DNA of 64,000 nt from Escherichia coli (GTDB lineage: Bacteria > Pseudomonadota > Gammaproteobacteria > Enterobacterales > Enterobacteriaceae). Under the pieces are notes generated by a model. That model saw only the letters and a list, made by a program, of their open reading frames with translations. It did not search any database and had not been told where the DNA came from. The DNA lies in NCBI RefSeq assembly GCF_029227855.1, contig NZ_CP074356.1; one strand, given 5' to 3'. This document shows, in pieces, positions 14,874 through 21,319 of this stretch. The position numbers and the translations under genes were made by a program. The first letter of the stretch is position 1. Every line of letters begins with the position of its first letter.

Positions 14874-16874
14874 TCATCCTTGTTGCTGAAGCATGGGGAA
14901 TAATTGTTCGCAAATCAAAACACCGTTATTCATTGCTTCTACCCGTGCCTCGCTTTCTGTATTACGAAATTGTGCCAACACATGTGCCAGCCGATAAAAA
15001 CCGACCGCGGTGAGGTCATTCGCCAGCAACTCTGCCTGACCAATAGCACTCTGTTCCTGATAGCGCCAGCCGTTATGGAGCAGTTGAATAAGTAACGCCT
15101 GGCAGCGCATCAGCAACTGATGAGCGGTAGACGGCACAGGCAAAACGCTGGCAGAAGGTAGCGGTGCCACAGGCGCAGTTTCTGCGTCCAGCGCCCAGGC
15201 GCGGGTTTTTGTCATCATCACCCGTGGTTCCAGTGTCAATTGCCCCTCTACAAAGCTGACAAAGCCAGAAACCAGACTCACGGGGTCGTCTGTTTGTTGC
15301 AAAAGCGCCGCCATGCGTTCAACGGCAAAAGGAGAACAGGCAGATGCGGGAAGGGATAACGTCAGCAGATTATCTTCACCTTCGCCGCTGATTACCTGCG
15401 CATCCAGCGTCTGGCGGCTGCTATCCCAACCGAGTGAAATACACTCAGCGACTGGCAGAATAAATAAGTTATCCACCTGATTAAGAGGCCGTATGCAGGC
15501 GGGGGGACGCTGGCGTAAATATTCCCGCAAAGCCACAATGCCCGGCTGGCGCAATGGCGCGCTCAACATTTGCCAGGCATCAGGCGACAGCGGCACAACG
15601 CTGCTTAAGCGGTTGCGGGTAGCTAACAGCAGCTCGCCATCGGCACTGCGTTTTGCTGCTTGTGAAACAATTTGCCCGCCCGCCAGTGCGCCAGCCTGAA
15701 AACTAAACAGCCGACGCGTAGCTGCCGGTGAGTTTTCCTGTTCACTTCGCGGCCAACTGCGCGAAAGGTGCAAAATACTGCCGGTGTCGGGATCGGTAAA
15801 CCAGATGCGTAAACCATAATGCTCAATATCCTGCCAGCAACGCATACCTAAAGACACCAGCCGCAGATGATCAAGCTTTGCTTCTCCGGCAATGCCAGAG
15901 CCAACGACCGTGCGCCACGGCACAGGAGGAACTTCACCAACACTGTCGCGCCGGGTCATCTCTTGCGCGCAATTTAATCGACTGTTTAATGCCGCAAGCT
16001 GACGTAAGCATTCTCCGGCATGATAGTGGCTGGCGCGGGCGTGGAAGGCATCAACGCTGGCGCGCAGTTGCCGTAGCGATTCACTCACCCAGCGCCAGTT
16101 GCAGCGTTCCGCCGCTTGCTGCGCGCGGCTGAAAGCAGCCTCGTAATGAATAAGCGGCTGGCTGATGCCGCCAAGCCATAACGCCTGGCTTAATTGCTGA
16201 ACATATTGACGACACGCGTCCCCCTCATCGTTGGCAAACGGATCGTCAGATGATGTGACGTGTTCGCTGCGCATCTGCCAGATTAAATGAGTAAATTCCG
16301 CTTGCTGCGCTTTGGCCTGGACAAAGGCCTGTACTGCCAGTACGACATGTTCGCAAAGTGTTCCTTCAATACAATCACAGCGAGCGAAACGAATGCTGCT
16401 GCGGGAATAAAAACGTACATCGCTCATCGGTAAGCGGGCAGAGGGAATTTCGCCCGGCGTACAGAACAACTCAATGGTGATGCCTTTAGCGACCAGTGCC
16501 TGTGCGCGTTTGCGGGTGGCATCGGGCAGGGTAGCCAGTTCTTCCAGCCAGATTGCCGGATCCCACTCTTCTTCTTTTTCCGTAGTCTGGGTGGTGGCGC
16601 AAAGTCGCTGATAACTTAAAACCAGCATCACGCGATGGCGGCACATGCCGCTGGCCCCGCAGCTGCACTGAGCCTCTTTCAGTGCCTGACCGTTCGCCAG
16701 CTGGGTACGGACACCGTCACTGAAGGTGGCGATTAAAGCGCCGTTCTCATGGCTGATTTCCGGGACGTTGCCATTTTCCAGTTCTTTAAGGCTGCGCTTA
16801 ACAAAACCGGCATTGCTTAACGCCGTCAAAGCTTGTGGTGTCAGTTCTAATAATTCCGGCCGTAGTGAATTCAT
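14874..16874 (-). CDS. yehQ: SWIM zinc-finger protein YehQ (two CxCx5CxH motifs)
   Basis: 666-aa ORF; CSCGASGMCRH and CDCIEGTLCEH; ATGA overlap with yehP stop; exact start not verified. Confidence 0.75.
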   Translation of the reverse strand: MNSLRPELLELTPQALTALSNAGFVKRSLKELENGNVPEISHENGALIATFSDGVRTQLANGQALKEAQCSCGASGMCRHRVMLVLSYQRLCATTQTTEKEEEWDPAIWLEELATLPDATRKRAQALVAKGITIELFCTPGEIPSARLPMSDVRFYSRSSIRFARCDCIEGTLCEHVVLAVQAFVQAKAQQAEFTHLIWQMRSEHVTSSDDPFANDEGDACRQYVQQLSQALWLGGISQPLIHYEAAFSRAQQAAERCNWRWVSESLRQLRASVDAFHARASHYHAGECLRQLAALNSRLNCAQEMTRRDSVGEVPPVPWRTVVGSGIAGEAKLDHLRLVSLGMRCWQDIEHYGLRIWFTDPDTGSILHLSRSWPRSEQENSPAATRRLFSFQAGALAGGQIVSQAAKRSADGELLLATRNRLSSVVPLSPDAWQMLSAPLRQPGIVALREYLRQRPPACIRPLNQVDNLFILPVAECISLGWDSSRQTLDAQVISGEGEDNLLTLSLPASACSPFAVERMAALLQQTDDPVSLVSGFVSFVEGQLTLEPRVMMTKTRAWALDAETAPVAPLPSASVLPVPSTAHQLLMRCQALLIQLLHNGWRYQEQSAIGQAELLANDLTAVGFYRLAHVLAQFRNTESEARVEAMNNGVLICEQLFPMLQQQG

Positions 16875-18007
16875 GACTGAAGATTCTCCGCAAGCCAGGT
16901 CGCCAGTTCGCCCGGCGTCATGGCGGCTATTTGTGCACCGACATTAACCAGTGCCTGGGCCATATCGCGGTCATAGCAAGGTGTTGCGGTGCTATCGAGC
17001 GCCGCCAGTCCCAGCACTTTGACGCCGCTCTGGACACACTTTTTCACCTGATGCGTCAGCAATGATGATGAACCCCCTTCATAGAAATCGCTCACGAGGA
17101 TAATGACGCTTTTCGCTGGTTGTTCAATAAGTTGCCGACCATACTCCACGGCACTGGCGATATTGGTCCCGCCGCCCAGTTGTACTTTCATTAATAACTC
17201 TACTGGATCAGCAACGTCTGCCGTGAGATCAACGACGCTGGTGTCAAACGCCACCAGATGGGTACGAATGCCGGGTAACTGCCATAAACAGGCCGCCATC
17301 ACCGCAGAGTGGATCACCGAATCGACCATCGATCCGCTTTGATCAACCAGTAAGACCAGTTGCCATTGTTCGCTTTGGCGTTTAATGCGGCTGTTAAAGC
17401 GGGGGGATTCGATATACAACTTGTCGTGTTGCGGGTGCCAGTGTTGCAGGTTGGCGCGCAGAGTACTTTTGAAATCAAAGTTTCGCGCCAGTGGAATAAA
17501 TGAGCGGCGACGGCGATCGCGGACACCAGAAAAAGCCTGACGAACTTCCTTTGCCAGTCGCGCCATAATTTCTTCAACTACCTGGCGCACTATCCGGCGG
17601 GCGGCAGCCAGCACTTCGGGATTCATCAGATGTTTGGTGTGCAAAACGGCGCGTAACAGGCTTTCAGAAGGCTGCATACGTTCCAGCACGTCGAGATTCG
17701 TCAGCACATCTTCAATGCCGTAGCGCAGTACGGCATCGCTTTCCAGCCGCTCGATCACCTGTTGCGGAAACAGCGTGTGAATACTGTTGATCCACTCAGG
17801 GGTGGTGAGATTTGAGCCACCTAATCCACCAGAGCGTTCACCACGCTGGAGCCGTTCAGGATCGCGCCCATACAGCCACTCCAGCGCGTGGTCTATCTGC
17901 CGGGCGTTGTCATCCAGCCCACAAAGGGTCGTTTCTGCCGCTTCGCCAAGAATTAATCGCCAGCGTTGTAGCTCACGGGTGGTCAGAAGATCGTTCAGTT
18001 CAGACAT
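16871..18007 (-). CDS. yehP: von Willebrand factor A domain protein YehP
   Basis: ORF track gives 16871-18235 but the upstream part overlaps yehM; start MSELNDLLTTRELQRW gives 378 aa; MIDAS motif LVDQSGSM; start overlaps yehM stop by 8 nt. Confidence 0.8.
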   Translation of the reverse strand: MSELNDLLTTRELQRWRLILGEAAETTLCGLDDNARQIDHALEWLYGRDPERLQRGERSGGLGGSNLTTPEWINSIHTLFPQQVIERLESDAVLRYGIEDVLTNLDVLERMQPSESLLRAVLHTKHLMNPEVLAAARRIVRQVVEEIMARLAKEVRQAFSGVRDRRRRSFIPLARNFDFKSTLRANLQHWHPQHDKLYIESPRFNSRIKRQSEQWQLVLLVDQSGSMVDSVIHSAVMAACLWQLPGIRTHLVAFDTSVVDLTADVADPVELLMKVQLGGGTNIASAVEYGRQLIEQPAKSVIILVSDFYEGGSSSLLTHQVKKCVQSGVKVLGLAALDSTATPCYDRDMAQALVNVGAQIAAMTPGELATWLAENLQS

Positions 18008-20231: not shown

Positions 20232-20241
20232 GCATCTTTCC

Positions 20242-21319
20242 TCACGGCAGGCGGTGGCGGGCTTGATAATAAGCCTGCCAGTGAGCTTCTTTATGTGTGG
20301 CGACACGCTGTTCGAAGTAACGGCGCAGACGCGCGCGATCTTCTTCGTTATCTTTAACGATGGTTCCGGCAATACAGTCCACCAGATCGGCTGGCTCACC
20401 TGCGCGATTCGCTAAAAACCAGGCGCGGACGCCCACTGCGTGGGCCACGTTCACGGCTTCAGCGGTGGATATAATTGCCGTCAGAGTATCCATTGACGTT
20501 TTCTTTTCGCCGTTGGCACGCAGATCGCGGAAGGTGCGGACCAGTAACTCCAGTACCGCGTCAGGCACTTTATGCGGAATACCGCTATGGGCCAGCAAAC
20601 GCGCCGAAGCACTGGCGACCAGTTCCAGCTCCTGGGCGAAATCCATAATCGGAAAGACGGTTTCAAAATCGAAGCGACGCTTTAGCGCGGCACTCATCTC
20701 ATTGACGCCGCGATCGCGGGTATTGGCAGTGGCAATAATATTAAAGCCTTCCCGCGCATAGAGCTGACTGGCTTCACCGGTGAGTTCCGGCACCGTCATC
20801 ACCCTGTCAGAAAGCATACCTAACAGACAGTCTTGTACTTCCAGCGGTGTACGCGTTATCTCTTCAAAACGGACGATTTTGCCGTCGCGCATTCCCTGGT
20901 AAAGCGGGGCAGGGACCAGTGCTTCCGTAGACGGACCATGGTTGATAAGCAGGGCGTAGTTCCATTTGATCTTCAGTAGTAGATGCGCCGCCCTGGATGG
21001 TTAACCCGGCATCGCCGCTAATAGCGGTTGCCAGTAATTCAGACAGGAGAGATTTTGCGGTGCCCGGTTCCCCCACCAACATCAAACCGCGCCCGGTGGC
21101 AAGAGTGACTAACATACGTTCGACAGCGGAGGGACTAATCACCACTTTACGGCTAATATTTTGCGCGCTATCGCCAAGGATAAAAGCACGGGCCGCAGGC
21201 AAACTTAACTGCCAACCGGGCGGGCAAGGTGCGTTATCATTTTGTTTTAATTTTGCCAGTTCATCGGCGTATAACACAGCAGCAGGCGGACGCTGCAGAT
21301 GATTATTCTGCGGTGACAT
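20242..21319 (-). pseudogene. yehL: yehL (MoxR-family AAA+ ATPase) split by a frameshift near 20860-20975
   Basis: ORF-track pieces 20864-21385 and 20242-20892 are in different frames and overlap by 29 nt; span is 1078 nt (not a multiple of 3); Walker [11 protein letters not shown] in the 5' piece. Confidence 0.65.

Follow-up and report, generated by a model that had tools for sequence, protein, structure and literature searches.

MoxR-type AAA+ ATPases are paired with proteins carrying a von Willebrand factor type A (VWA) domain in several described systems. The closest to the locus studied here are CoxD/CoxE, NorQ/NorD and CbbQ/CbbO, the RavA-ViaA pair of Escherichia coli and the MoxR-vWA ternary systems of Kaur, Burroughs, Iyer and Aravind (2020; PMC7159879). 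Of the seven MoxR subfamilies, one is named the YehL subfamily after its type member, YehL of E. coli (PMC3893208). We analyzed the yehLMPQ cassette in a window of 64,000 nucleotides (the whole stretch of DNA, contig NZ_CP074356.1 of assembly GCF_029227855.1), the sequence of which is that of the chromosome of E. coli JNEC-KY178. The four genes are the downstream half of a conserved operon of five families, in which one or more giant proteins of the WGR/DUF4132 type are followed by YehL, YehM, YehP and YehQ. No reported function of these genes was found in the literature, as an earlier reading of the sequence (here referred to as the original prediction) had assumed.

With CoxD/CoxE, NorQ/NorD and CbbQ/CbbO, in which a CGN-type MoxR ATPase works with a CoxE-type VWA adaptor, the yeh operon shares an AAA_5 MoxR ATPase encoded beside a VWA_CoxE protein with a complete metal-ion-dependent adhesion site (MIDAS). 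By analogy, the mechanics may be shared as well, i.e. a hexameric motor and an adaptor holding on to the client by an acidic residue. In contrast, the yeh operon has no metalloenzyme or Rubisco client (CO dehydrogenase, NO reductase and others are not found in the operon or the flanks examined). It rather adds partners with TIKI-type and HEAT-like, SWIM and oligonucleotide/oligosaccharide-binding (OB), and WGR/DUF4132 modules, and YehL belongs to a MoxR subfamily of its own. RavA-ViaA, the other E. coli MoxR-VWA pair, resembles the system in having the ATPase and its VWA cofactor in one operon and in its uncertain physiological role. However, it represents a different MoxR subfamily in a two-gene operon, has respiratory complexes and LdcI as partners and is devoid of TIKI, SWIM and WGR components.

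The systems of Kaur et al. are likewise composed of a MoxR-vWA core and dedicated components. Further common features are the CoxE-type N-terminal region of YehP, a peptidase-like enzyme and the enrichment in actinomycetes and Myxococcota, and YehL gave a weak match to the Pfam family bpMoxR (E 0.0024). However, none of the four defining third components (VMAP, iSTAND, FtsH, beta-propeller) was detected by Pfam on YehM or YehQ. The variable C-terminal vWA effectors are absent from YehP, for which the only fusion seen is to YehM. Moreover, the yeh operon is invariant across phyla, chromosomal, fixed and present in unicellular enterobacteria. Neither SWIM nor WGR is mentioned in the paper of Kaur et al. 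(PMC7159879).

For the operon survey, 80 loci were retrieved from species-representative genomes with YehM (DUF5682), the most specific family, as the marker. The open reading frames (ORFs) of these loci were searched with iterated hidden Markov models (HMMs) built from the E. coli proteins. The gene order was almost invariant, with one to five WGR/DUF4132 giants followed by YehL, YehM, YehP and YehQ, and with few exceptions all of them shared a strand. The gap between the giants and yehL was mostly 0-100 bp, and the few loci without a giant were mostly cut by a contig end. The original prediction, which proposed such a co-occurrence survey, placed the cassette directly beside the giants. This understates the arrangement, since in nearly all 80 genomes the giants are constant members of one co-directional operon with yehLMPQ.

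The 80 loci span Enterobacterales, Burkholderiales, Xanthomonadales, Myxococcota and many actinomycetes and thus at least three phyla. At least 560 species-representative genomes carry the YehM marker, and a search of sequences clustered at 50% identity gave about 2,256 YehM relatives (E <= 0.001). The gene order recurred in contigs annotated with Pfam, which came from Variovorax and from three more sources (metagenomic or genomic). The small gene yehK had one match among 82 loci and was dropped from the system because it is not conserved outside Escherichia. Single-member clusters of E. coli "fusion" proteins were set aside as assembly or frameshift artefacts. A proteobacterial-type operon was present in a metagenome-assembled genome of an uncultured Propionibacteriaceae bacterium (locus L035, 5101-15362), the YehM of which is 42% identical to that of E. 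coli as compared to 36-39% for other actinomycetes, which points either to horizontal transfer or to a contaminated bin.

The gene coordinates in the window (Table 1) follow the annotation of the identical record NZ_AP045174.1 (E. coli JNEC-KY178) and an ORF listing, which agree with each other. The predicted arrangement of four co-directional, overlapping genes on the minus strand was confirmed. With the yehM stop codon TGA at 18000-18002 and the yehP start at 18007, these two genes overlap by 8 nt, and an ATGA at 16871-16874 combines the yehP stop with the yehQ start. All motifs quoted for YehL, YehP and YehQ were located as well, and the assignment of AAA+, VWA and SWIM domains agrees with Pfam.

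YehL matched AAA_5 (2.6e-34) and YehP matched VWA_CoxE over its full length (4.2e-72). Walker A, Walker B, sensor 1 and the arginine finger were at least 95% conserved in 82 YehL orthologues, and the same held for the DxSxS, T and D positions of the MIDAS in 80 YehP orthologues. A VWA partner was found next to YehL in 78 of 82 loci. The expected pairing of a MoxR ATPase with a VWA protein is thereby borne out, and the helix-2-insert/AAA_5-type module with an adjacent MIDAS-bearing partner places YehL in the YehL subfamily of the MoxR AAA+ family. The nearest solved structures to YehL were the AAA modules of midasin. NCBIfam gave only sub-threshold matches, namely to GvpN, MadB, a cobaltochelatase and a WGR-containing protein of Leptospira. 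Sequence searches of the PDB with YehM, YehQ and YehP as single sequences, and with a profile of YehM, returned nothing useful. YehP orthologues called in other contigs had 374-396 amino acids and carried VWA_CoxE/VWA_2 alone. Besides this, yehP contains the exact 16-nt sequence GTGGAGTATGGTCGGC (17134-17149, minus strand). In a published study with reporter and YehP-EGFP constructs it was reported as a promoter of +1 ribosomal frameshifting, the product of which would have 303 amino acids and be devoid of the last 75 residues (PMC2790909).

YehM was classified by Pfam as DUF5682 (5.9e-99). The original prediction regarded it as a large protein of unknown fold, which the structure model (predicted local distance difference test, pLDDT, 92.5) corrects. 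It shows a predicted hydrolase domain of the TIKI/TraB/EreA/ChaN (erythromycin-esterase) type at the N-terminus, followed by HEAT-like repeats. The N-terminal domain has the alpha/beta fold with a core of parallel beta-strands that defines this superfamily. To our knowledge, DUF5682 carries no TIKI-type annotation. H11, E35, R175, E176 and H202 are invariant in the family, H12 is conserved in at least 90%, and these residues are placed at strand ends in the model.

The order and spacing of the His, Glu and Arg residues resemble those of the catalytic residues of RRSP (H3902, E3930, R4001 and H4030) and of erythromycin esterases (PMC6254334), a likeness by spacing rather than by residue superposition. 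The position two residues before the first His is not Glu. YehM has no detectable sequence similarity to the TIKI superfamily (Tiki1/2, RRSP, TraB/PrgY, erythromycin esterases, ChaN, HopBA1) and differs from its members by this missing Glu of the 2His/2Glu motif, by the fused long HEAT-like solenoid and by its location in a MoxR-VWA operon. The sole profile matches of YehM, to ATP synthase subunit b, were rejected as spurious coiled-coil matches.

A natural fusion of YehM and YehP into one polypeptide of 1180 amino acids was found in locus L086 (GCA_022841245.1, JALHRW010000058.1), which argues that both proteins act together physically. This locus (3227-23468) harbours two tandem copies of the system, one of them with the fusion. 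The other copy carries a HEAT_2 protein and an unannotated protein of 501 amino acids instead of a WGR/DUF4132 giant. A gene with a DNA ligase C-terminal domain is located just upstream on the opposite strand.

YehQ had two SWIM matches in Pfam (9.7e-4 and a weak one of 0.21), and the first CxCx5CxH motif was invariant in 44 orthologues. In the model (pLDDT 92.2) the SWIM fingers are followed by helical bundles and two units of beta1-3/alpha/beta4-5 topology. Foldseek related these units to RPA70 DBD-A/B (probability 0.99), the p202 HIN domain (probability 1.0), MNDA HIN, LEF-3, POT1 and CST, with marginal E-values and a uniform theme across the matches. YehQ is therefore predicted to carry two RPA/HIN-like OB folds besides its two SWIM fingers.

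The 25916-29710 giant matched WGR (4.6e-18) and DUF4132 (1.1e-51), while the WGR domain of the 29723-33520 giant was assigned from the N-terminal alignment of both proteins. Three giants are indeed present next to the cassette as predicted, but only two carry WGR, since YehI begins after the position of this domain. The WGR domain matched the Bacteroides structure 2ra8 (5.5e-24) and, weakly, that of PARP3 (2.7e-3). The C-terminal 430 residues of the giants are the most conserved part and end in a tail with an invariant Ser-Glu. WGR, tandem OB and VWA modules also belong to the repertoire of eukaryotic DNA-damage sensors (PARP WGR, RPA/HIN OB pairs, Ku VWA), and DNA-damage-inducible expression is a further common trait (E. 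coli, Deinococcus). However, the yeh system lacks a PARP catalytic domain and its architecture and partners are unrelated, so that this resemblance is an analogy only.

Table 1. Position of genes, motifs and further elements of the yeh locus within the window.
Feature	Position	Strand	Description
yehQ	14874-16874	-	intact, 666 amino acids
yehP	16871-18007	-	intact; CoxE-type VWA adaptor
yehM	18000-20231	-	pseudogene; DUF5682
yehL	20242-21319	-	pseudogene; MoxR-family (YehL subfamily) AAA+ ATPase, Pfam AAA_5
yehK	21895-22215	-	small gene between giants and yehL
yehI	22276-25906	-	frameshifted pseudogene; DUF4132 giant without WGR domain
Giant, 1264 amino acids	25916-29710	-	intact; WGR residues 7-69, DUF4132 residues 988-1173
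Giant, 1265 amino acids	29723-33520	-	intact; WGR/DUF4132; 43% identical to the 25916-29710 giant
YehQ SWIM 1 CSCGASGMCRH	16635-16667	-	
YehQ SWIM 2 CDCIEGTLCEH	16347-16379	-	
YehQ OB folds, two	~15591-15884 and ~15192-15467	-	predicted from the model
YehP MIDAS DxSxS (DQSGS)	17330-17344	-	
YehP MIDAS GGGT	17165-17176	-	
YehP MIDAS SD	17075-17092	-	
YehM GxxH	20193-20210	-	
YehM Glu	20121-20135	-	
YehM Arg-Glu	19695-19712	-	
YehM GGxH	19626-19640	-	
YehL Walker A GEPGTAKS	21050-21073	-	motif location
YehL Walker B	20857-20874	-	motif location
YehL sensor 1	20707-20733	-	motif location
YehL Arg-finger region	20671-20688	-	motif location
LexA (SOS) box AACTGGATAAAATTACAGGG	33528-33547	-	ends 7 nt before the ATG of the first giant gene (29723-33520)
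OrzO-P antitoxin small RNA	21431-21506	-	Rfam RF02083, 101 bits
zorO ORF MDTLTQKLTVLIAVLELLVALLRLIDLLK	21752-21841	+	type I toxin, 29 amino acids
IS200C tnpA	33732-34190	-	between metG terminator and promoter/LexA box of the first giant gene
STnc490/art200 small RNA of IS200C	34200-34323		Rfam, 146 bits

The first giant gene is preceded by a promoter box as expected for a member of the LexA regulon. This box, AACTGGATAAAATTACAGGG, recurs unchanged in E. coli ATCC 11303. It contains mismatches; a perfect CTGT-N8-ACAG was found nowhere in the window. The gene molR has been listed among the LexA-regulated genes with a known SOS box (PMC6590174). None of our results supports the name "molybdate regulator" given to molR. 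Two proteins of Deinococcus radiodurans, one with WGR and one with DUF4132, are members of the DdrO/IrrE DNA-damage regulon and are raised by mitomycin C. The region upstream of yehL is bound by H-NS in K-12, and an hns/stpA mutant shows raised yehL and yehM. The IS200C insertion (33732-34323) leaves the promoter-proximal sequence of the first giant unchanged as compared to ATCC 11303.

The spacer between yehK and yehL houses a zorO-orzO type I toxin-antitoxin locus (21431-21841). No copy of it is known from K-12 and two from O157:H7 (PMC2887945). The length of the spacer varies between strains from 306 to about 1240 bp because the copy number of zorO-orzO differs.

In this window, the cassette has been inactivated by mutations. 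In yehL, an 11-bp deletion near 20964 lies between Walker A and Walker B, and the ATPase is therefore divided over two frames, with Walker B, sensor 1 and the Arg-finger region in a different frame from Walker A. In yehM, a TCG to TAG change (19560-19562) replaces codon 224, Ser in intact alleles, by a stop, and an in-frame deletion of 48 bp is located near 18304. Together with yehI, three components are pseudogenes and the system is thus unable to work in JNEC-KY178.

Seven annotated E. coli genomes were compared for lesions. Every component was intact in ATCC 11303, and B36 had all conserved components intact with a frameshift in yehK. Besides JNEC-KY178 (yehL, yehM and yehI disrupted), lesions were present in K-12 (molR pseudogene, yehQ shortened to 614 amino acids), O157:H7 strain 1130 (internal stop in yehM, damaged giants), O111:H8 strain 1074-2 (frameshifted yehQ, one giant with a stop) and 45E (one giant with a stop). 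In total, five of the seven strains carried an independent lesion in at least one conserved component, in four of them inside yehLMPQ, and the system is therefore dispensable in those strains.

Presence within the species was counted in 5426 complete E. coli genomes. The cassette occupied one chromosomal position in 5366 of them (99%). Full-length giants were less regular, with the distal one (29723-33520) in 1629 and the middle one in 4010 genomes. Within E. coli, identities are 87-93% for the giants and about 96% for metG and yehLMPQ on either side of them. The giant alleles of JNEC-KY178 were shared with 313 genomes at >=99%, whereas its metG and yehLMPQ alleles were shared with only 5-6, which indicates mosaic recombination across the locus. 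The block from metG to yehQ (14874-36405) of this strain is about 96% identical to the median E. coli as compared to 98.4% for the adjoining btsSR. A fast evolution of yehLMPQ was rejected as an explanation of the 96% identity, since the adjoining metG is equally divergent in JNEC-KY178.

Based on the composition of the operon we favour, with a probability of about 40%, that it encodes a nucleic-acid-responsive, ATP-driven protein switch which controls a hydrolase and has a role in chromosomal DNA-damage or aberrant-DNA stress. We prefer this to a new phage-defence system, a maturation chaperone or a relic. The giants with their PARP-type WGR domains and YehQ with two SWIM fingers and two RPA/HIN-like OB folds would bind DNA ends, breaks or single-stranded DNA. 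The MIDAS of YehP may grip an acidic residue of a partner, for which the invariant C-terminal Ser-Glu of the giants is a candidate. The AAA+ ring of YehL would then pull on YehP and remodel the complex. This could gate the hydrolase domain of YehM, which is of the TIKI family and most probably acts as a site-specific peptidase. In Escherichia the operon would be wired to DNA damage through the LexA box at the first giant gene, with an H-NS-bound spacer preceding yehL. We infer the MIDAS capture, the ATP-driven remodelling, the licensing of YehM and DNA as the trigger from the families involved.

Several points weigh against a role in DNA damage. The TIKI likeness of YehM is confined to the fold level, with the first Glu of the 2His/2Glu motif missing, and its sequence profile finds nothing in the PDB. 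A simple motif scan of 48 loci detected no conserved LexA-type box (gamma/beta-proteobacterial or actinobacterial) upstream of the operon; a recurrent CTG-N10-CAG at +40 was rejected as a LexA box, being part of the WGR coding sequence. In E. coli, yehK and the zor-orz spacer separate the SOS-boxed giants from yehLMPQ, and SOS induction may not extend to these four genes. Finally, the lesions in five of seven strains are no harder to reconcile with a costly conflict system than with repair.

Such a conflict system of a new type, as the original prediction suggested, is possible but rather doubtful. Here, invading DNA or a protein of the phage would be recognised by the giants and YehQ, with a threshold set by the MoxR-VWA pair, and the YehM peptidase would cleave a host or phage target, either in abortive infection or in direct attack. 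A MoxR-vWA core with extra components and peptidase effectors follows the logic of the systems of Kaur et al. The variability of the giants also points in this direction, as they occur in one to five tandem copies between species and vary within E. coli in copy number and identity with mosaic alleles. The same applies to the independent inactivating lesions, to which a deletion in Shigella sonnei lineages can be added, to the silencing of the yehL promoter region by H-NS and to the type I toxin-antitoxin locus lodged in the spacer. In addition, the system is patchy among enterobacterial genera and abundant in actinomycetes and Myxococcota.

However, nothing tested marks the operon as a known phage-defence system. 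Searching the seven proteins with the HMMs of PADLOC-DB 2.0 at E <= 0.01 matched 0 families, with a library from 2023 that covers systems up to that date. Among 40 flanking ORFs from 9 diverse loci, a small sample, there was no defence gene and only weak partial matches were obtained, and the neighbours across loci are ordinary housekeeping genes (metG, btsSR, recJ, cytochrome bc1). The YehM marker was present on only 1 of 50,697 phage records. On plasmids it was found in 39 of 72,556 records, largely mis-filed chromosomes, megaplasmids and non-mobilizable replicons. The fixed location in 99% of E. coli, the constant composition without exchange of effectors and a divergence that broadly tracks taxonomy do not favour a conflict system either, and no phage-protection assay of the locus was found in the literature. 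The sole match in the phage collection (MT835988.1, 10632-12770) is a YehM relative with 25.6% identity over 94% of the length. It lies on an unannotated 14-kb "Bacteriophage sp." contig from human faeces, possibly bacterial DNA.

A function of YehL-YehP as an assembly or maturation chaperone like CoxD/CoxE, NorQ/NorD and CbbQ/CbbO appears improbable. In that case both proteins would fold, metal-load or reactivate the giants or YehM, which would hold the real activity. All characterised MoxR-VWA pairs serve the maturation or remodelling of a client whose gene is close by (PMC3893208; PMC7159879), and client-like giants are always adjacent to the pair. The full-length VWA_CoxE match of YehP and the AAA_5 module of YehL, weakly similar to GvpN and midasin, are in agreement with this. 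However, the operon contains no metalloenzyme client, its partners bear nucleic-acid-binding and hydrolase modules, and both the LexA box and the copy-number variation of the giants would be left unexplained.

That the operon is a decaying, functionless relic in E. coli, persisting by slow loss instead of selection, is very unlikely: the frequency of lesions, the truncation of about one in ten YehM cluster members (a rough count that includes some contig ends) and the listing of these genes for the genome-reduced strain DGF-298 would fit, but conservation of the catalytic motifs extends across phyla, ATCC 11303 and B36 have fully intact loci, and 5202 of the 5426 genomes keep at least 80% of a cassette that neutral decay would have lost.

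Beyond the giants, annotation and ORF map place IS200 and then metG. Several lesions were seen in this chromosomal neighbourhood of JNEC-KY178. An IS110-family transposase adjoins dusC, and yohF (NZ_AP045174.1, locus L001, 3787-4548), upstream of the window region, is annotated as a pseudogene with an internal stop as well.

Taken further, the preferred DNA-damage switch could be a DNA-sensing machine of a previously unrecognised kind, which we consider unlikely. The WGR giants and the SWIM-OB protein would detect damaged, stalled or foreign DNA, upon which the MoxR-VWA pair would license a TIKI-family endopeptidase to cut a specific protein, with the hypervariable giants as interchangeable specificity modules. 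If true, this could be a bacterial counterpart of the proteolysis of DNA-protein crosslinks and stalled complexes, or a DNA-triggered abortive-infection protease.

Genes of the best-studied bacterium which have long been without a function are now defined as a five-family unit with residues that can be mutated: Walker A of YehL, the MIDAS of YehP, His11, Glu35 and His202 of YehM, the SWIM and OB modules of YehQ and the C-terminal Ser-Glu of the giants. The lesions in K-12, O157 and JNEC-KY178 may be one reason why no function has been found so far, and strains with intact loci are identified (E. coli B/ATCC 11303 and B36). If DNA sensing is linked to regulated proteolysis in this system, it would represent a new branch of bacterial DNA-damage or immunity biology and give the YehL subfamily its first function.

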